Virus record (IMG/VR): IMGVR_UViG_3300011693_000001
Coordinates: 62,001 to 126,000 of that record
Source: an uncultured virus (IMG/VR IMGVR_UViG_3300011693_000001)
Lineage: Duplodnaviria; Heunggongvirae; Uroviricota; Caudoviricetes
Direction: 5' to 3' (one strand)
DNA: 64,000 nt
Under the pieces are notes generated by a model. That model did not search any database and was not told where the DNA came from. It saw only the letters and a list, made by a program, of their open reading frames with translations. Below, in pieces: positions 35,471 to 47,266 of this stretch. The translations under genes and the position numbers were made by a program. The number at the start of each line of letters is the position of its first letter. Position 1 is the first letter of the stretch.

Positions 35471-36935
35471 GCAGTTTCTTGCTCTGAGTCCATCCAAACG
35501 TAAAAAGTATCTTAAGCAGTTTCCTCAATCTAGCCATCGTTTTCTTGATGGTGAGGGCGGGTCTAGCGAGGCTCCTGAAGAGAAACTTAAAAAAGTTAAG
35601 AAGGGAGATAAGCCTAAGAAGGGTGATAAGCCTAAGAAAGAAAAGAAAAAGAAAGAAGCGGAGATTGAACAGGACGAAGAGAAAGAACCTGAAGTAAAGA
35701 AGCGTCCATTTAGTCGCTTTATGACCAAGGCTCAATTCGCCATTCTTTCTGACGAAGAGAAAGCCTCTTATCTTGACCAGTTCCCCGGTAGCTCTCATAA
35801 GGAGCGTCCACCTCGCATTAAGCCACGTCCAAGCCGTATGGAACATAATCTGGATTTCACTGATGAAGAGCTGGCTTCTATGCATGAGGAAATGCAACAA
35901 GAGCTGGCTAATATGAGCACGGAAAATCGAGCTAGCATTAACCGGGAAAGTATCGGCCACTTAAATGATGTATCCACAGATGATATGCGTGAAGTGAGCG
36001 AAGATGTTCGCCACCACAGCGAAGAAATCGCAGAAGACGTCGCTAAGCGATTTCAGCGTCACCCTAAACTTTTCGGAGCTGGTTTATCCGGTATACGTAA
36101 GTTGTGGGGAGGTGAGGATGAACCCTCTCGTGCAGAAAAGAAAGCAGCCGATAAAGTTCTCACGCAGGCCACCAAATACGTAATGTTAGGGGCCGGTGTT
36201 GTAGCTCTAGCCGCTGCTGCTTCTCCTGTAGCGATGGTAGTAGGTGCGCTTATCCTAGACGCTTATGCCTCTAAATTTCTTGAGACTAAAGAAAACAAGA
36301 AGGAAGAGCAACTAGATAAGCTCAAACAAGAAAACTCTTTGATGAAGCAGAAGGAAAAGGAACGCCAAGAGCAATTGCGTGCCAAGATTCGCGCGCAGAA
36401 GGAAGAAGAAAAACGACTAGCTGAGCAGAAAGAAGAAACAGAGGAACGTCTGGAAGAATCTGCGGAAAAGGATCAGGCTGAATCCGAAGAAGAGCTTGAA
36501 CCTAATGTTCAAGAAGATGGAGATAGCGGAGAGGCTGTCTCTGACGAAACAGATGACGATGAAGAACCTAAGAAGAAAAAGAAGAAAAAGAAGAAAAAGA
36601 AAGGAATGAAATCGGAATCGGCATATCATAAGAATGATCTAGGTACTGGTATTGAGTTCACGCACGAAGATGATTTTGATACTATCCATGAGGTAGTTAA
36701 AAACATCGGTCAGTTCTTCGAGGATAACGATGCCGATACTTTACGCGATCATGCACGTGTTGCCTACGGTAAGCTAGCCAGCCATCTTGTATCCGAATCT
36801 TCTGCTACCTATAACAGTATCGACGATCTTGCTCAAGCAGTCTCCGGTCAGGTAGAAGGTAATTTTGTAGTAACGGCATCTGCCCGTTACGAATATAACG
36901 AAACGACTGGACGTTACGGTCATGCAAAAGATTGA
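35439..36935 (+). CDS. Highly charged hypothetical protein with a central hydrophobic segment
   Basis: Poly-K and acidic tracts; two copies of an F..LS...K..YL..FP.S.H motif. Confidence 0.7.
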   Translation: MKAEAAGISRKQFLALSPSKRKKYLKQFPQSSHRFLDGEGGSSEAPEEKLKKVKKGDKPKKGDKPKKEKKKKEAEIEQDEEKEPEVKKRPFSRFMTKAQFAILSDEEKASYLDQFPGSSHKERPPRIKPRPSRMEHNLDFTDEELASMHEEMQQELANMSTENRASINRESIGHLNDVSTDDMREVSEDVRHHSEEIAEDVAKRFQRHPKLFGAGLSGIRKLWGGEDEPSRAEKKAADKVLTQATKYVMLGAGVVALAAAASPVAMVVGALILDAYASKFLETKENKKEEQLDKLKQENSLMKQKEKERQEQLRAKIRAQKEEEKRLAEQKEETEERLEESAEKDQAESEEELEPNVQEDGDSGEAVSDETDDDEEPKKKKKKKKKKKGMKSESAYHKNDLGTGIEFTHEDDFDTIHEVVKNIGQFFEDNDADTLRDHARVAYGKLASHLVSESSATYNSIDDLAQAVSGQVEGNFVVTASARYEYNETTGRYGHAKD

Positions 36936-37668
36936 TATCCAAATGGAAGCTACCTCTTTCTCAATTGGTAGCGTTCCGACAGCTCTAAACAAAGCTAGCA
37001 AAACAGGTGCTTTGCATCTAGGCGCTAAAGTTGCCGGTGGCGAAGCTCGTAACCTAGAGGTGCATAACCTGTTAGCGGGTGCCTCAGAAGTATACCTAAT
37101 CAGCCCTGATGTTAGAGACTACATCATCATCCCTACTGTTAGTATGATTTCCGATATCCCTAATACAAACGGGGATAGTCTAAGTAAGCGGGAATTGCTG
37201 CGCTTTAACCCTAAACGGGGTTGCTTGACATATGAAACTTGGAAAGGTATGCCTACATTTGTTGAGCACGACAATAAGGATCATACCAAAGCCAAAGGGA
37301 TTATCTTAGATAGTTATCTAACTACTCTTCGTGGATTCCAAGGTGATTTGGTCAAAAGCGTCAAACTGCTAGCTTTTGACCGTACGAAAGACCCAGCTCT
37401 ATGCGAGCGCCTTCTTCGTAGGGAAGTGAACACATTTAGTCTTGGTTTTCTTTTCTCCGCATATGAGTGTAGTATCTGCGGTCACGTGTCCACAGGTCAA
37501 ACTTTCTGCGGTCATACTCGTCCTAAGCAGCGTACTTATAGGATGAACGATGGTCGCTTAGCTTACCGTCGTTGTATGTATGCAAACGGCTTTGAAGAGT
37601 CGGTTGTAAACGATCCCGCATACGTTTCTAACCTTAGTGACATTCTTCTCGACCCACGAAAGCTGTAG
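36922..37668 (+). CDS. Putative prohead (capsid maturation) protease
   Basis: PNTNGD, FVEHDN, KGIILD, FSLG, CSICG, S.V.DPA pattern typical of this phage protease type. Confidence 0.65.
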   Translation: MQKIDIQMEATSFSIGSVPTALNKASKTGALHLGAKVAGGEARNLEVHNLLAGASEVYLISPDVRDYIIIPTVSMISDIPNTNGDSLSKRELLRFNPKRGCLTYETWKGMPTFVEHDNKDHTKAKGIILDSYLTTLRGFQGDLVKSVKLLAFDRTKDPALCERLLRREVNTFSLGFLFSAYECSICGHVSTGQTFCGHTRPKQRTYRMNDGRLAYRRCMYANGFEESVVNDPAYVSNLSDILLDPRKL

Positions 37669-37705
37669 GCTTGAAACTGTGTTTAGTAAACTGTAAATAA
37701 CCAGT

Positions 37706-37794
37706 ACCTGAGAGGAAAAGCGCCGGCCAGCGCGGGAAAAGCCTATCACTTTTCCCTTACTCTCAGGTTTCTTTTTATCTGATAGGGATAAATC
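37706..37794 (+). ncRNA. Candidate cis-regulatory RNA leader, copy 1 (three-way junction plus pseudoknot to the RBS)
   Basis: P1 37706-14/37760-68; P2 GCGC-CGGCCA-GCGC; P3 GGGAAAAG-CCTATCA-CTTTTCCC; the P3 loop is complementary to TGATAGG 37780-86, overlapping the SD. Confidence 0.7.
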
Positions 37795-38895
37795 ATGGGA
37801 AACAACAGTCGTAAAGCAAGCGAAACAAAATTCGCAAATTCACCTGCTAGGATGCAACGCCGTCTGGATGAAAAGTTCGGCGGACATATACGCATCCACA
37901 GCGGTTACACAGGTTTTCGGTTTCCTGCTGTTTTTCATTGCAGTAAACACAACGAAGTTTTTCAGGTTCCTCGCGCAGAAGCGATGATCCATGATCGCGT
38001 AGGTTGTCCTACGTGTGCGACTGAGAGTAAACGAAAGTTAATGCAACGTGCTGGTAACGCTTACACTACAGCTATTTACCGTCAGGCTGTTCGTGAAAAG
38101 TATGGTCGCAAGATTACCGTTGTTGGTGAATACGGTGGTTACGAGTACAGGCATAAAGGCGCAGTTAAAACACTTCACAAGTGCAGCAAGCATGGTGAAT
38201 TTGAAGCGTGGCCTTCTGCTGTGCTTCAAAGACCTACTGGTGGTTGTCCCGAGTGTGCGTTAGATACGCGCCGTGTGAGAGTCAACACACTGACTGGCCC
38301 TGAATTCCGTAGGCAATTAAAAGCCATAGCTCCGCGTGTTCGACATATCGGTGAGTATGGCGGTAAAACAGTTCGCACTGAGTTCCGTTGCCGTGACTGC
38401 GCTCACGGATGGAAAACGACCCCTGATTCTGTACTGGCTGGTCATGGTTGTCCTGCATGCGGACTTGAAGCAACGTTCGCCAAACGTCATCACGGTTCAC
38501 GATTGCGCCCCTACAAGCTAGGCCGTCGTGAAGTAATGGTACAAGGGTTTGAACCACAAGCTCTTGATTACCTACGTTCAGTTGGCTACCGGCCTGAACA
38601 GATTTTCGTAGGCTCTGATGTTCCCAAGGTACGTTACAACTATCGTGGAAAGAACAGAACCTACTACCCTGACATTTGGATTCCGCATGAGAATTTAATC
38701 GTCGAGGTGAAATCCCTCTATTTCTTCGGCGCTACTGATATCAATTTGTTCCGTAGTGTGAAAGCTAAAAGAAATGCTACCTTGCAACATCATAACTTCG
38801 CATTGCTGGTTATGTCAGACGACGGTAAGAAGATAAGCATACCACAAGGTTGGCACAACCTTCCTCATGCAAAATTAAAAGCTGCCATCCTGTAA
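37795..38895 (+). CDS. Free-standing homing endonuclease: Zn-ribbon repeats plus PD-(D/E)XK domain
   Basis: CSKH...GCPTC, CSKHG...GCPEC, CRDC...GCPAC; QGFEPQAL; YYPDIW...IVEVKS. Confidence 0.85.
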   Translation: MGNNSRKASETKFANSPARMQRRLDEKFGGHIRIHSGYTGFRFPAVFHCSKHNEVFQVPRAEAMIHDRVGCPTCATESKRKLMQRAGNAYTTAIYRQAVREKYGRKITVVGEYGGYEYRHKGAVKTLHKCSKHGEFEAWPSAVLQRPTGGCPECALDTRRVRVNTLTGPEFRRQLKAIAPRVRHIGEYGGKTVRTEFRCRDCAHGWKTTPDSVLAGHGCPACGLEATFAKRHHGSRLRPYKLGRREVMVQGFEPQALDYLRSVGYRPEQIFVGSDVPKVRYNYRGKNRTYYPDIWIPHENLIVEVKSLYFFGATDINLFRSVKAKRNATLQHHNFALLVMSDDGKKISIPQGWHNLPHAKLKAAIL

Positions 38896-38899
38896 TACC

Positions 38900-38931
38900 A
38901 AAGCCCAATGGAGAAATCTGTTGGGCTTTTT
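38900..38931 (+). terminator. Rho-independent terminator
   Basis: AAAGCCCAATGGA-GAAA-TCTGTTGGGCTTT plus T run. Confidence 0.8.
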
Positions 38932-39081
38932 CGTTTATGGGATAAAACTGTAAAAACAGACAACGATTTGGTACTAAGCACTAGCCGGTGCATTACAGCG
39001 AATATAAAACTGAATCGTAAGGGCTACCGAATAAAGTACGGCATATCGGTATTAGACAACTCCACTTGGAATCTTCACCTA

Positions 39082-45121: not shown

Positions 45122-46216
45122 ATGAAACAACATCTGACTGGCGCGAAGATGCAACTGCGCAACGGCGATCCTATCGAAGCTCTGCGTTTCGGTAACAGCA
45201 ATCAACTGGCTCTGAGTTCTGCCACTGGCGAATTCAACGCTTACGATAAGAAAGACCTCGCTCACGCCATCACTCAGCTGATGGGCGCTTTTGCTTCCGG
45301 TCAAATCGTTCAACAGCAAGAAGCTACTGCTGCTGATATTCAAGAAGCCAAGCGTGAAGCTCTGGCCGCTGCTCTGGCTGATCCGAGCGGTGCTAAGTGG
45401 ATGGCTCTCGGTTCCGGTCTGGCTCGCCAAATCGACGAACAAGTTGAGCGTCAAGGTTTCCTGCGTAACATCGCTGTAGGTAACACTCTGCGTCAGGGCG
45501 AAATCGCTCGTATCCCGATGCCGACTCACGATGCTCTGGCCGTTGTTGCTACTTCTAGCGCCAACGTTGGTTTCCAGACTATTCGTAATCGTGTGTTCAC
45601 TCCGCAAGAGTTCGAAATCATCGCCAACGTTCGCGTTGAGTCGCTTGATCTGGAACAAGTAAGCGGCGATCTGCTGGAGTTTGCGTACAACCAAGGTCTT
45701 GAGCAAATCATGACCAAGGAAGACCAAATCTGGAAGAAAGCAGCCGACCAAACTGTTGGTGTTGTGAACCCGCTGGAACTGATCGCTGGTGAACTGACCA
45801 CTAAGAACCTCGGCAATCTGCGTCAAGCTGTTGCTAAGCATAACCTGCCGGCACAAACTGCAATCATCGCCAACGATTATTGGGCTGACATTATCGGTTC
45901 CAATGACTTCGCTACCATGCTGGACCCGATCACCAAGTATGATCTGGCTCTGAATGGTCAGCTGGGTACTCTGGTTGGTATGAACCTGATCACTGACGCT
46001 TTCCGTCAGCCGAACCAGAAAGTTCTGAATCCGGGCGAAATCTACATCGTTGCTTCTCCTGAGAACCATGCAGCTTACACCACTCGCGGTGGTATCCGTT
46101 CGCAGCCGACTTCCGGTGCGGATCAAGGTTCGACCAACCGTGGCTGGCTGATGAGCGAGCCGTTCTCCTTCATTCTGGCTAACGCCCGTTCGGTAGCGAA
46201 GGGCCAAAGAGTATAA
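45122..46216 (+). CDS. Major capsid protein (HK97-like)
   Basis: Size, extreme codon bias, IMTKEDQIW, GQLGTLVGMNLITD, GWLMSEPFSFILANARSV. Confidence 0.85.
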   Translation: MKQHLTGAKMQLRNGDPIEALRFGNSNQLALSSATGEFNAYDKKDLAHAITQLMGAFASGQIVQQQEATAADIQEAKREALAAALADPSGAKWMALGSGLARQIDEQVERQGFLRNIAVGNTLRQGEIARIPMPTHDALAVVATSSANVGFQTIRNRVFTPQEFEIIANVRVESLDLEQVSGDLLEFAYNQGLEQIMTKEDQIWKKAADQTVGVVNPLELIAGELTTKNLGNLRQAVAKHNLPAQTAIIANDYWADIIGSNDFATMLDPITKYDLALNGQLGTLVGMNLITDAFRQPNQKVLNPGEIYIVASPENHAAYTTRGGIRSQPTSGADQGSTNRGWLMSEPFSFILANARSVAKGQRV

Positions 46217-46254
46217 GCGACAGGATATCTTGATTGCTAAATAATTGAGTTAAC

Positions 46255-46353
46255 ACAAACATGTTTGGGGAAAAGCCGGCCAGCCTTCTCGGTTTCGCAC
46301 AATCGAGATACCTAAACCTGTTTGTTCTTTCCCGTGCGAGGGAGCATCCCAAA
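46255..46353 (+). ncRNA. Candidate cis-regulatory RNA leader, copy 2 (same fold as 37706)
   Basis: P1 46255-69/46311-25; GAAAA linker; GC-CGGCCA-GC; P3 TCTCGGTT-TCGCAC-AATCGAGA; the loop is complementary to GTGCGA 46334-39, abutting the GGGAG SD. Confidence 0.7.
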
Positions 46354-47175
46354 ATGTATTACGTCTACGTTCTTCTTGATCCTAGGCGACCCGGTAACTT
46401 TCGATTCGGTAAGTGGAAATTCGACTACGAACCTTTCTATGTTGGAAAGGGTACAAAAGATCGAGCGATATGCCACTGGCGTTCTTTCATAAACCATTTG
46501 GATAATCCTAGCTACGTACATCGTAAGCATAATCCATTGAAAGATAAGCGGTTTCAACATCTCTATAAAGCTGGTGTTGAGCCAATAGTAGTGATAAAGA
46601 AGCGGAATCTTACAGAAGAAGAATCTTGCTTAATTGAAACTGCGCTGATCGAAACTATAGGTCGTGTTAGATATGGTGGTCCTCTGTTGAATTTAGCCGC
46701 TGGCGGTAAAGGTGGCGGTAGTATGCTTGGTAGAAAACATTCTGCTGAATCTATTGAAAAGAACAGAGAAAGCAATAAGCAAACATCTGCAAGAATTGAT
46801 CCTCAGATCGTAAAGAAACGCACTGCTGCCAGATTAGCTACTATGGCCGCTAAGAGCGACGCAGAGAAGTTGATCATATCTAATCAGAATAAGAACGCCG
46901 CGCAAACATTTTGGGATGGTCCCTCGGAAAAGGTGGAAGCTCGCAATGCGAAAGTGAGAGCCTACGCGCGAAACCGATACGCAACAATGAGTGAATCGGA
47001 CTTGGCTAAACTGCGGGCTAAACAAGCCGTAGGTCATATCACGAAGCATCTACCTGATCGGACAAAGGAAAAGATTAAAGCCGAACTCAAAGCATATATT
47101 GATCGTAGCTCAATCACTAGCGTAGATAAGTTATGTAAGATGGTGCGGAATCGGTTTTATCGGATGGTTTCTTAA
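46354..47175 (+). CDS. GIY-YIG homing endonuclease (LEM-3-like) with NUMOD3-like motif
   Basis: YYVYVLLDPR...PFYVGKG..R, E..LI, LLNL; GRKHSAESIEK; start reassigned to ATG 46354 after the GGGAG SD. Confidence 0.88.
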   Translation: MYYVYVLLDPRRPGNFRFGKWKFDYEPFYVGKGTKDRAICHWRSFINHLDNPSYVHRKHNPLKDKRFQHLYKAGVEPIVVIKKRNLTEEESCLIETALIETIGRVRYGGPLLNLAAGGKGGGSMLGRKHSAESIEKNRESNKQTSARIDPQIVKKRTAARLATMAAKSDAEKLIISNQNKNAAQTFWDGPSEKVEARNAKVRAYARNRYATMSESDLAKLRAKQAVGHITKHLPDRTKEKIKAELKAYIDRSSITSVDKLCKMVRNRFYRMVS

Positions 47176-47266
47176 TTAGATCGCGTGAGGCTGATGAAGG
47201 AGTAGCGCCCGACTGATTCGCTTCACGCAGTCACTTGCAATCCGGATAAGTGTTAGCGAGGATATC

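Follow-up and report, generated by a model that had tools for sequence, protein, structure and literature searches.

A conserved leader RNA of phage homing-endonuclease cassettes and its probable role as a lock on nuclease translation

Introduction

Among the selfish genes of phages, homing endonucleases are the most common. They leave their mark on recombination boundaries and have found use as tools, but to our knowledge the restraint of their expression is hardly understood outside T4. The window analysed here comprises 64,000 nucleotides of the genome of an uncultured jumbo phage (positions 62,001 to 126,000 of IMG/VR record IMGVR_UViG_3300011693_000001). It contains two endonuclease genes of different families, each preceded by a short leader of the same predicted fold. 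We asked what this RNA is, whether it belongs to the phage or to the nuclease genes, and what it might do to their translation.

Results

Architecture of the leader of the GIY-YIG gene

The leader that raised the question, copy 2, lies directly 5' of a GIY-YIG gene and has the following features.

46217..47254, + strand: the complete mobile cassette with copy 2, comprising a 38-nt AT-rich 5' flank, the RNA leader, the GIY-YIG gene and a 3' flank
46238..46244, + strand: TAAATAA in the AT-rich box 5' of P1, seen in the sequence
46255..46269, + strand: 5' arm of P1, pairs with 46311-46325
46270..46274, + strand: GAAAA junction strand (J1/2), invariant or nearly so in the alignments
46275..46284, + strand: P2, GC[CGGCCA]GC, with an invariant hexaloop and a 2-bp stem
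46285..46286, + strand: CU junction strand (J2/3), CCU in most members of the family, conservation at least 90%
46287..46308, + strand: P3 hairpin TCTCGGTT [TCGCAC] AATCGAGA, present in the minimum-energy fold
46309..46310, + strand: UA junction strand (J3/1), columns invariant (25/25)
46311..46325, + strand: 3' arm of P1, pairs with 46255-46269
46329..46344, + strand: P4 mini-hairpin TTCCC [GTGCGA] GGGAG, in the minimum-energy fold
46354..47175, + strand: GIY-YIG homing-endonuclease gene of 273 aa (PF22945, residues 2-104, E 6.8e-11)

All pairings that an earlier note had listed for this copy were present in the sequence. P1 comprises 15 positions, including one A/C mismatch and one G-U pair, and the arms of P3 (46287-46294 and 46301-46308) enclose the loop TCGCAC at 46295-46300. 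What had been described as a U-rich tail proved to be a 3-nt spacer, TCT, followed by the 5' arm of P4, a hairpin that had been overlooked. P4 has 5 bp (TTCCC/GGGAG) and the loop GTGCGA at 46334-46339, and its 3' arm, GGGAG at 46340-46344, is the Shine-Dalgarno (SD) sequence. The proposed pairing of TCGCAC with the GTGCGA directly 5' of GGGAG was borne out, and these loops covary across the family described below. Since GTGCGA is the loop of P4, the contact is a loop-loop contact, a kiss of 6 nt in which each base of the P4 loop has its complement in the P3 loop.

The gene had been listed with a start at 46261, inside the leader, which the earlier note held to be wrong in favour of ATG 46354. 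Four points support this revision. The Pfam GIY-YIG domain begins at residue 2 of the shorter protein. The homologous gene located 3' of the major head gene in phage pEa_SNUABM_22 (34% identity over the full length, E 1e-45) also aligns from residue 2. The GGGAG SD and P4 end 9 nt upstream of the ATG. Finally, an in-frame stop codon separates leader and start in 16 of 30 members of the family, including the GIY-YIG relatives L279, L250, L063 and L268.

The second leader and the search of the genome

Copy 1 (37706-37791) follows the plan of copy 2 with other stem sequences.

37694..37700, + strand: TAAATAA box 5' of copy 1, seen in the sequence
37706..37768, + strand: three-way junction of P1, GAAAA, P2, P3 and UUA, found in the minimum-energy fold and by covariance-model matches
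37775..37791, + strand: P4, TTATC [TGATAGG] GATAA, its loop complementary to the P3 loop CCTATCA
37795..38895, + strand: endonuclease gene of 366 aa with DUF723, DUF4379 and DUF7487 domains

Its P1 arms are ACCTGAGAG/CTCTCAGGT; P2 is GCGC[CGGCCA]GCGC with a 4-bp stem and is followed by P3, GGGAAAAG[CCTATCA]CTTTTCCC. The kiss extends over 7 nt, P4 has 5 bp, the SD sequence AGGGA spans the P4 loop and 3' arm, and the ATG follows 3 nt after P4. The gene matches PHROG families annotated as HNH endonuclease and as endonuclease. TAAATAA precedes both copies, at 37694-37700 and 46238-46244, as had been noted.

The core sequence GCCGGCCAGC occurred twice in the genome of 259,605 bp, both times in the two leaders, and a reversed control pattern gave 0 occurrences. 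A covariance model, R1, was built from 7 elements of other phages without the window sequences. When the 259.6-kb jumbo phage genome was searched with R1, exactly both copies were returned over the full model (E 9.3e-6), and the next match had an E-value of 1.19. Copy 1 reached E 1.8e-7 with model R2, a score that is not independent, since the R2 alignment includes both window copies. Neither model detected a copy beyond the two in the genome. A loose motif had also picked out GAAAAGCCGGCCA three times at G000:C1:254150-254520(-); these candidates are a coding repeat of the AEKPAK type and were rejected.

In absolute terms, both window copies scored 28.8 bits under R1 versus at least 42.9 bits for the other 28 members, and chance loci carrying the exact core reached up to 35.8 bits. 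As the R1 score of the window copies does not exceed that of chance loci, their assignment to the family depends on other features: P4, the kiss, the SD, the gene context and the E-value within the genome. Both copies have the three-way junction with GAAAA, the CGGCCA-loop hairpin, C(C)U and UA. In both, a kiss connects to an SD-bearing P4, the start codon follows within about 12 nt and a homing-endonuclease-like nuclease gene lies downstream.

The folding energy was compared with that of shuffled sequences. The z value was -0.15 for the 141-nt stretch, -2.49 for the 71-nt core of copy 2 and -5.03 for the core of copy 1, where 0 of 200 shuffles folded as well. Because shuffled versions of the 141-nt region were as stable, folding energy by itself was taken as weak evidence and covariation was used in its place.

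A family of leaders supported by covariation

Separate core-motif scans of the sequence collections yielded 107 viral, 48 metagenome and 23 viral loci. Exact duplicates were collapsed before counting, and L067, which is cut by a contig end, was excluded. The full architecture was found in 31 distinct sequences from viral and metagenome contigs, namely 30 members and additionally L303. Their common order is a variable P1, GAAAA, P2 with the CGGCCA loop, CCU, a variable P3, UA, the 3' arm of P1, a spacer and P4.

In the 30-member alignment, 94.8% of the cells pair, compared to 59.4% after shuffling and 23-57% in slid controls. The covariation score was 0.857 versus 0.197 for shuffled alignments and was reached in 0 of 500 shuffles. 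Changes on both sides were observed for 8 of 8 modelled P1 pairs and 6 of 6 modelled P3 pairs, and P1 helices of up to 18 bp occur. The claim that the stems differ and still pair, made from the two window copies, thus holds for the family, where the stems change their sequence and keep the pairing.

The kissing loops behave in the same way. A complete Watson-Crick match of 6 or 7 nt between the P3 and P4 loops was found in 25 of 30 members. All 163 loop positions of the 25 members with loops of 6 or 7 nt are Watson-Crick paired, which none of 2000 permutations equalled, and 21 distinct loop sequences are used. When a P3 loop was compared with the downstream regions of other members, the match averaged 3.4 nt and reached 6 nt or more in only 10 of 854 pairings. 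The members L238 and L248 have identical P1 and P3 stems; four changes in the P3 loop are accompanied by four compensating changes in the P4 loop. P4 has arms of 3-5 bp in 26 of 30 members, and 20 distinct arm pairs occur among the 27 members counted for the kissing tables, from which L242 (a bulged kiss that the parser mis-placed), L024 and L235 (kiss below 5 nt) were omitted. The start codon follows P4 after 2-11 nt in 29 of 30 members, the remaining row being the mis-parsed L242, and the region before the start shows the pattern NNNNGG|AG or similar.

Only the unpaired junction strands and the P2 loop are strictly conserved in sequence; all other helices vary freely. The sequence GCCGGCCAGC was invariant in 25 of 25 aligned members. 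The CGGCCA hexaloop and the two inner pairs of P2 were identical in 30/30, and the P2 stem has 3 bp in most members, L303 being the second member with 2 bp. Such a pattern, with conserved junction and loop nucleotides between variable helices, is typical of ligand pockets. Either a small molecule or some widespread host factor might bind the junction and the CGGCCA hairpin. Binding would then fix the angle between P1 and P3, and this angle would decide whether the kiss forms and the SD is hidden. Any such factor would have to be widespread, because the leader occurs in phages of different hosts. A common factor reading the CGGCCA loop, as suggested in the earlier note, fits the invariance of this putative recognition site. 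The gene context points to no ligand or protein, however, since nuclease genes, and no metabolic genes, follow the leader. Nor was a mutually exclusive alternative pairing found when GAAAAG was compared with the pyrimidine-rich spacer (complementarity 3.03 versus 3.32 for shuffled sequences, i.e. no better), and no Rfam riboswitch matched. We regard a sensor function as a tentative proposal that is rather unlikely; it would refine the reading of the leader as a translational lock and does not exclude it.

In databases of known RNAs the leader found no counterpart. The Rfam 15 scan of the whole window gave 0 family matches at or above the gathering score, with only two sub-threshold chance matches (mir-375 and COG3860 RNA) around copy 2. 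Among 17 member loci, the sole real Rfam match was a group I intron in L005, outside the leader. Neither locus had a match when compared by megablast with 50,697 phage records. Short-query blastn found intergenic matches in two isolates only, Burkholderia phage BCSR5 and Erwinia phage pEa_SNUABM_22; the remaining matches were coding sequence or unannotated short records. The hosts of the relatives are Pseudomonas, Erwinia and Burkholderia. In bacterial genomes the exact 17-mer is present at no fewer than 120 loci. When 100 of these were scored with R1, the best reached 29.0 bits and none the 42.9 bits of true members, and none of 20 others had the full architecture in the parser check.

The leader travels with the nuclease genes

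The genes downstream of the leader matched nuclease families in 21 of 30 members. Five families were represented: GIY-YIG, I-HmuI-like HNH, DUF723/DUF7487, EndoVII-like and ParB-like. The proposal that one RNA module serves the two nuclease families of the window therefore holds and extends to five families in other phages. The leaders of L102 and L103 are about 97% identical, their homology stops at the start codon and the nuclease genes that follow are unrelated. As nearly identical leaders stand before unrelated nuclease genes, the leader is modular. Two observations speak against a simple lock on every nuclease gene. Behind the intact leader of L238 there is an ORF of only 19 codons, and two other endonuclease-like genes of the same jumbo phage genome have no leader, so that not all endonuclease genes require it.

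The origin of the leader was followed by comparing alleles. In a contig of run X3, position 46216, the last base of the capsid stop codon, is joined to 47255, and 63 other letters replace the 1038 nt in between. The contig comes from a near-identical phage whose allele lacks the endonuclease gene. In pEa_SNUABM_22, the leader and the GIY-YIG gene form an insert of about 985 nt directly 3' of the capsid stop codon; in phage Alexandra, whose flanks are about 95% identical, a 52-nt spacer is located at the insert site. The phages PaBG, Lu11 and HRDY3 have no such gene 3' of the major head gene. In PaBG, an unrelated gene lies within 2 nt 3' of the head-protease gene, and therefore the copy 1 gene and its leader are an insertion. 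Alleles that have the nuclease gene could be compared in two cases with alleles that lack it, and both show that the leader moves as part of the cassette and does not belong to the phage backbone.

The sharp border between leader and ORF raises the question whether the core acts as DNA. The palindrome GCCGGC / GGCCGGCC could be a recombination or cleavage site at which incoming nuclease genes take the place of resident ones behind a shared leader. It is seen as a perfect palindrome in the core sequence, and the homology of related loci stops exactly at the leader/ORF border. A DNA site would leave the covariation in four helices and the link to the SD unexplained, and the palindrome measures only 6 bp in both window copies. 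We know of no nuclease that cuts at the leader core and consider this explanation very improbable.

Transcription signals and RNA processing

The leader might also serve the capsid or protease gene 5' of it as an intrinsic terminator or insulator. The sequence TTTCTTTTT follows P1 in copy 1, and in the Erwinia phage pair the cassette took the place of a hairpin-containing spacer. The terminator scan, however, gave no site on the + strand at either copy, the spacer after P1 is pyrimidine-rich without U runs in the family and thus not U-rich, and the leader is part of the insert rather than of the backbone. This makes a terminator the kind of explanation we would hardly expect to be correct.

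Promoter and terminator scans of the region were not above shuffles, and inside either copy no sigma-70-like sites were detected, where the phage group's own promoter type may differ. A box related to TAAATAA, of the TGTAAAT or CAATTT type, is located 5-17 nt 5' of P1 in about 20 of 30 members and may be the -10 element of a promoter. The RNA-library contigs that map to the region cover the capsid gene only and have no bearing on the expression of the leader or on transcript starts.

Since the leader directly follows structural genes that are highly expressed and share its strand, it could instead be a processing element, either a self-cleaving ribozyme or an RNase site that frees the nuclease mRNA from a long late structural-gene transcript. 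The lariat-capping ribozyme of twin-ribozyme introns would be the model for such a role. The conserved junction core and the long P1 helices would be compatible with this. None of the Rfam 15 ribozyme families matched, and the junction strands presumably do not fit a hammerhead core. Processing would also leave unexplained that the SD is always within the kiss and P4, and we consider it improbable.

Discussion

A model for the closed leader

We favour, with a probability of about 0.6, the reading that the element is a conserved, cassette-borne leader RNA that acts in cis as a lock on nuclease translation. On comparative sequence evidence, the leader has the pairings that covary, holds the SD within them, belongs to the cassette and is associated with nuclease genes. 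The repression of translation by this structure is likely in our model.

P1, P2 and P3 would form a Y-shaped three-way junction, and the apical loop of P3 would join the loop of P4 in a loop-loop helix of 6-7 bp. The SD would begin with its first purines in the last positions of the P4 loop and continue as the 3' arm of P4, and the closed structure would hold the SD out of reach of the 30S subunit. With the 30S subunit kept from the SD in the closed state, the nuclease would be translated at a trickle, or only once the lock opens. Loop-to-RBS pseudoknots can also activate translation, as in the case of IncI-alpha repZ. As a simple hairpin would suffice to hide the SD, the invariant 19-nt core suggests a further function. 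The junction strands GAAAA, CCU and UA and the CGGCCA hexaloop may fix the geometry in which P3 folds back along P1 and meets P4, or may alternatively bind something that controls this geometry.

Comparison with known systems

SAM-II, preQ1 and guanidine-II riboswitches are platforms that hide the SD by a pseudoknot or a loop-loop contact, and in the purine riboswitch kissing loops are placed on a three-way junction. Like these, the leader combines conserved junction nucleotides and variable helices with a tertiary loop contact that involves the SD. It differs in that selfish nucleases, not metabolic genes, are located downstream and in that Rfam gave no match. The kissing loops of the leader are not the binding site, because they vary freely and covary.

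A close parallel is found in the T-even phages, where hairpins that sequester the RBS control I-TevI, I-TevII, I-TevIII, segB and Aeh1 mobE (PMC2988022). As in the cases described there, the leader is a cis RNA structure directly 5' of a phage endonuclease ORF that pairs the SD, and the gene is on long transcripts from upstream genes (PMC2988022). The SD of the leader is likewise paired in the predicted RNA structure 5' of the endonuclease ORF. The T-even hairpins, in the account given in PMC2988022, are single and lineage-specific and have a late promoter inside. The leader, in contrast, is a four-helix fold with an invariant core of about 19 nt and no recognised internal promoter, and its conservation extends over unrelated phages and no fewer than five nuclease families.

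In twin-ribozyme group I introns, the GIR1 lariat-capping ribozyme (PMC2219692) is located 5' of endonuclease genes. Like the leader it is a structured three-way-junction RNA directly 5' of a homing-endonuclease ORF, and it serves the expression of this ORF. GIR1 is roughly 190 nt long, related to group I introns and found in eukaryotic nuclear introns, whereas the leader has about 90 nt, is phage-borne and shows neither intron similarity nor a sign of catalysis.

From IMG/VR, Fremin et al. 2023 (PMC10690425) catalogued unnamed candidate structured RNAs, some of them within 25 bp 5' of HNH or GIY-YIG genes, among them DNAVirus_8377 with mixed HNH_3, NUMOD4, AP2 and GIY-YIG genes downstream. 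The main text of this catalogue discusses no endonuclease-linked motifs, and the core sequence does not occur in those of its tables that were compared (PMC10690425). Full-text literature searches, by motif sequence as well as by structured RNAs linked to endonucleases, turned up no account of the leader, and a 2026 preprint on coevolutionary mining had no endonuclease content. The leader is apparently an undescribed, conserved family of 5' RNAs of free-standing homing-endonuclease cassettes.

Implications

The leader resembles a portable brake carried by selfish nuclease genes. More speculatively, and with rather more doubt than confidence on our side, it might represent a new, portable class of riboregulators of such genes. 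In these, an invariant sensor core that reads a host metabolite or host factor would be combined with a reprogrammable kissing-loop address that locks the SD of any nuclease gene placed behind it. If this were true, the infected cell would have to be in a particular physiological state for homing to start, and the module would pass between different endonuclease families through recombination at the leader/ORF border. The invariant core may represent a new RNA motif that binds a ligand or a protein, and the leader would be a naturally occurring case of an SD locked by a programmable kissing loop. It can serve as a search handle for endonuclease cassettes and their true start codons in metagenomes. 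Free-standing endonuclease cassettes would gain their first general regulatory signature in a conserved fold that is backed by covariation and is shared and carried along by at least five nuclease families.

Genome setting and fold of the leader

The phage genome comprises 259,605 bp with direct terminal repeats, and the window spans bases 62001-126000 of it. Its major head protein shares about 63% identity with its counterparts in the Pseudomonas jumbo phages Lu11, PaBG and HRDY3. The two copies of the leader and their surroundings are located in the window as follows.

36922-37668: head maturation protease gene, 5' neighbour of copy 1
37694-37700: TAAATAA box upstream of helix P1 of copy 1
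37706-37791: leader, copy 1
37795-38895: gene of 366 aa, 3' of copy 1, with DUF723, DUF4379 and DUF7487 domains and matches to PHROG endonuclease families
45122-46216: major head gene, 5' neighbour of copy 2
46238-46244: TAAATAA box upstream of helix P1 of copy 2
46255-46344: leader, copy 2
46354-47175: GIY-YIG gene, 3' neighbour of copy 2

At 38896-38940, directly 3' of the copy-1 endonuclease stop, lies a terminator-like hairpin of 13 bp with TTCGTTT behind it. It overlaps the ORF-track start of the next gene at 38908, which makes this start doubtful.

The helices named in the earlier note were all found in the sequence where it had placed them. With ViennaRNA, the three-way junction of P1, P2 and P3 was the minimum-energy fold in both copies. 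Taken alone, the junction of copy 2 had a z-score of −2.49 (2 of 200 shuffles were equally stable) and that of copy 1 a z-score of −5.03 (0 of 200). A longer stretch of 141 nt was not more stable than its shuffles (z −0.15) and folding energy was therefore not used as an argument. The parts of the leader, including a small downstream hairpin P4, are listed from 5' to 3'.

P1: 8-18 bp, sequence free
Junction strand after the P1 5' arm: GAAAA
P2: GC stem of 2-4 bp with an invariant CGGCCA hexaloop
Junction strand from P2 to P3: C(C)U
P3: 5-8 bp, loop mostly of 6-7 nt
Junction strand after P3: UA, followed by the P1 3' arm
Spacer after the P1 3' arm: pyrimidine-rich
P4: mini-hairpin of 3-5 bp, then 2-11 nt to the start codon

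The P3 loop had been proposed to pair with the bases just 5' of the Shine-Dalgarno (SD) sequence. This pairing exists, but the bases in question are the loop of P4, which had been overlooked, as had the fact that the SD itself is the 3' arm of P4. The hairpin reads TTCCC[GTGCGA]GGGAG in copy 2 and TTATC[TGATAGG]GATAA in copy 1. Since the P3 loop is partnered by the P4 loop and the SD is the P4 3' arm, the two loops would form a kissing complex in which all of the SD is buried.

Covariation of the helices and the kissing loops

In an alignment of 30 members fitted to a covariance model, a procedure biased toward the structure, 94.8% of the cells were paired, compared to 59.4% after shuffling and 23-57% when the 3' partners were slid. 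Changes on both sides of a pair occurred in all 8 pairs of P1 and all 6 of P3, and the P2 pairs were constant except for one G-U.

The statistics for the kissing loops were computed on the raw sequence. A perfect Watson-Crick pairing of 6 or 7 nt was observed in 25 of the 30 members. When a loop was matched to the downstream region of another member for a control, the mean was 3.4 nt and at least 6 nt were reached in 10 of 854 pairings. All 163 loop cells were paired; the loops comprised 21 different sequences, and none of 2000 permutations did as well. The P4 arms showed 20 different complementary pairs. Between the loci L238 and L248 the P1 and P3 stems are identical, and four changes in the P3 loop are matched by four in the P4 loop. 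The kiss was weaker in L024, L235 and L242. At L024:1580-1696 a stop interrupts the GIY-YIG ORF after 39 codons, and P3 and the kiss are weakened, so that the locus looks like a decaying cassette.

Membership of the RNA family

The shared 10-mer GCCGGCCAGC occurs twice in the whole genome, both times inside the two elements, and its reversed control does not occur in it. Looser motif matches elsewhere in the genome were rejected as further copies. They belong to a Lys/Ala-rich coding repeat (AEKPAK type) outside the window at G000:C1:254150-254520(-), where the core-motif look-alike GAAAAGCCGGCCA occurs three times, unrelated to the RNA.

A scan of IMG/VR with GAAAAG-N(0-2)-GCCGGCCAGC returned 107 loci, the majority chance matches in GC-rich coding DNA and about a quarter built throughout like the window elements. 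A 19-mer scan of metagenomes gave 48 loci, and the core form of copy 2 gave 23, with one true member (L303). After duplicates were collapsed 31 distinct members were obtained, both window copies counted. A covariance model built from seven members, none from the window, recovered the two window copies from the phage genome at E 9.3e-6, with the next match at E 1.19. The other 28 members scored 42.9-74.9 bits. The window copies scored 28.8 bits, within the 20-36 bits of chance loci preselected for the exact core, so that the score by itself does not establish their membership, which rests on P4, the kiss, the SD, the gene context and the within-genome E-value. When 50,697 deposited phage genomes were searched by short-query BLAST, BCSR5 and pEa_SNUABM_22 were the only two with the core between genes; in both, the gene 3' of it is annotated 'hypothetical protein'. 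No family matching the leader was found in Rfam 15.

Genes downstream of the leader

GIY-YIG genes follow 9 of the 30 leaders, DUF723/DUF7487/DUF4379 genes, classed in PHROGs as HNH or homing endonucleases, follow 6, I-HmuI-like HNH genes 3, EndoVII-like genes 2 and a ParB-like nuclease gene 1. Two more genes are GIY-YIG-like by eye only, one truncated where its contig ends and the other interrupted by a stop. The remaining seven comprise genes truncated at a contig end, very short ones, ones that match no family, and that of L244, which lay outside the family search. The earlier suggestion of one regulatory module common to two nuclease families is thus supported and extends to at least five. 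The phage itself has two further endonuclease-like genes without a leader, both outside the window, which shows that the leader is common among such genes and not obligatory.

G000:C1:24725-25783(+): DUF7487 paralogue, starting 16 nt beyond the stop codon of the gene before it
around G000:C1:207851-207979(-): HNH_3 gene

On the contig of L005, shared with L268, a leader and its GIY-YIG gene are preceded at a distance of about 160 nt by a complete group I intron (L005:1040-1329, Rfam RF00028, 83.8 bits), which may be an example of an intron that has a free-standing endonuclease gene as its neighbour.

Start codon of the copy-2 gene

The earlier claim that the ORF-track start at 46261 is wrong is supported; this ATG falls within the P1 5' arm. 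ATG 46354 is preferred because the GIY-YIG domain starts at residue 2, homologues begin there, the SD spacing is correct and 16 of the 30 members have an in-frame stop between element and start. The frame is open through the element in the other 14, copy 2 included, so openness alone decides nothing.

The leader belongs to a mobile cassette

The Erwinia phage pEa_SNUABM_22 and phage Alexandra share about 95% identity in the region of the major head gene. Directly after the capsid stop codon pEa_SNUABM_22 has an insert of about 985 nt, whereas Alexandra has a 52-nt spacer at that place. An AT-rich flank of 36 nt, the leader and a GIY-YIG gene of 282 aa make up the insert, and its GIY-YIG protein is homologous over the full length to that of the window (34% identity, E 1e-45). 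The full-length homology and the same post-capsid site indicate one cassette lineage in two distant jumbo phages. In a near-identical phage, a contig of sequencing run X3 joins 46216 to 47255 via 63 other letters (single contig, shorter side 46 letters); it is an endonuclease-free allele, and the leader is absent too. Since it rejoins the window at 47255, most of the spacer 47176-47266 between the copy-2 endonuclease stop and the next gene is cassette; this spacer has an imperfect hairpin (GCGTGAG ... CTTCACGC). No endonuclease gene follows the head gene in PaBG, Lu11 and HRDY3, or the protease gene in PaBG.

The leaders of L102 and L103 are about 97% identical, closer than their upstream coding flanks. 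Past the start codon no homology is left, the ORFs being an I-HmuI-like HNH gene in one case and an unrelated EndoVII-like gene in the other. L238 carries a solo leader, intact and with compensated kissing loops, followed only by a 19-codon ORF; it has 88 nt versus 426 nt in L248 with a 130-aa EndoVII-like nuclease gene (L238:1250-1650(-) versus L248:620-1020(-)). The leader is thus modular as well as part of the mobile cassette. In about 20 of the 30 members P1 is preceded, at a distance of 5-17 nt, by an AT-rich box of the TGTAAAT, TAAATAA or CAATTT type, which could be the −10 element of the cassette's own promoter or part of the RNA.

A probable lock on translation initiation

Terminator, ribozyme and DNA site were weighed as alternative readings; the best-supported is a cis-acting lock on translation initiation of the nuclease gene. 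Once P4 and the kiss have formed, the SD would be double-stranded. P3, the kiss and P4 would make a stack of about 15-20 bp folded back alongside P1. The P1-to-P4 distance has a narrow range across members, and this geometry, deduced from sequence, appears compatible with the lock. The invariant GAAAA, CGGCCA hairpin, CCU and UA may set the junction angle or bind a partner. No alternative pairing able to open the lock was found when the complementarity of GAAAAG to the spacer was compared with shuffles.

It is already known that the SD of a phage endonuclease gene can be concealed in RNA structure. According to PMC2988022, this was demonstrated for I-TevI of T4 and suggested for segB and for Aeh1 mobE, with single hairpins and an internal late promoter. 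The leader differs from these in its several helices, its conserved fold and its invariant core. Such a fold, carried by a cassette and shared by at least five nuclease families, was absent from Rfam 15 and from full-text literature searches. Fremin et al. 2023 (PMC10690425) compiled a large catalogue from IMG/VR that includes candidates without names 5' of HNH and GIY-YIG genes; compared by their descriptions, these may already include the leader as an uncharacterised entry. In conclusion, the earlier observation is confirmed: the leader represents a genuine RNA family that has apparently not been described before, and its role is most likely the throttling or gating of homing endonuclease translation.
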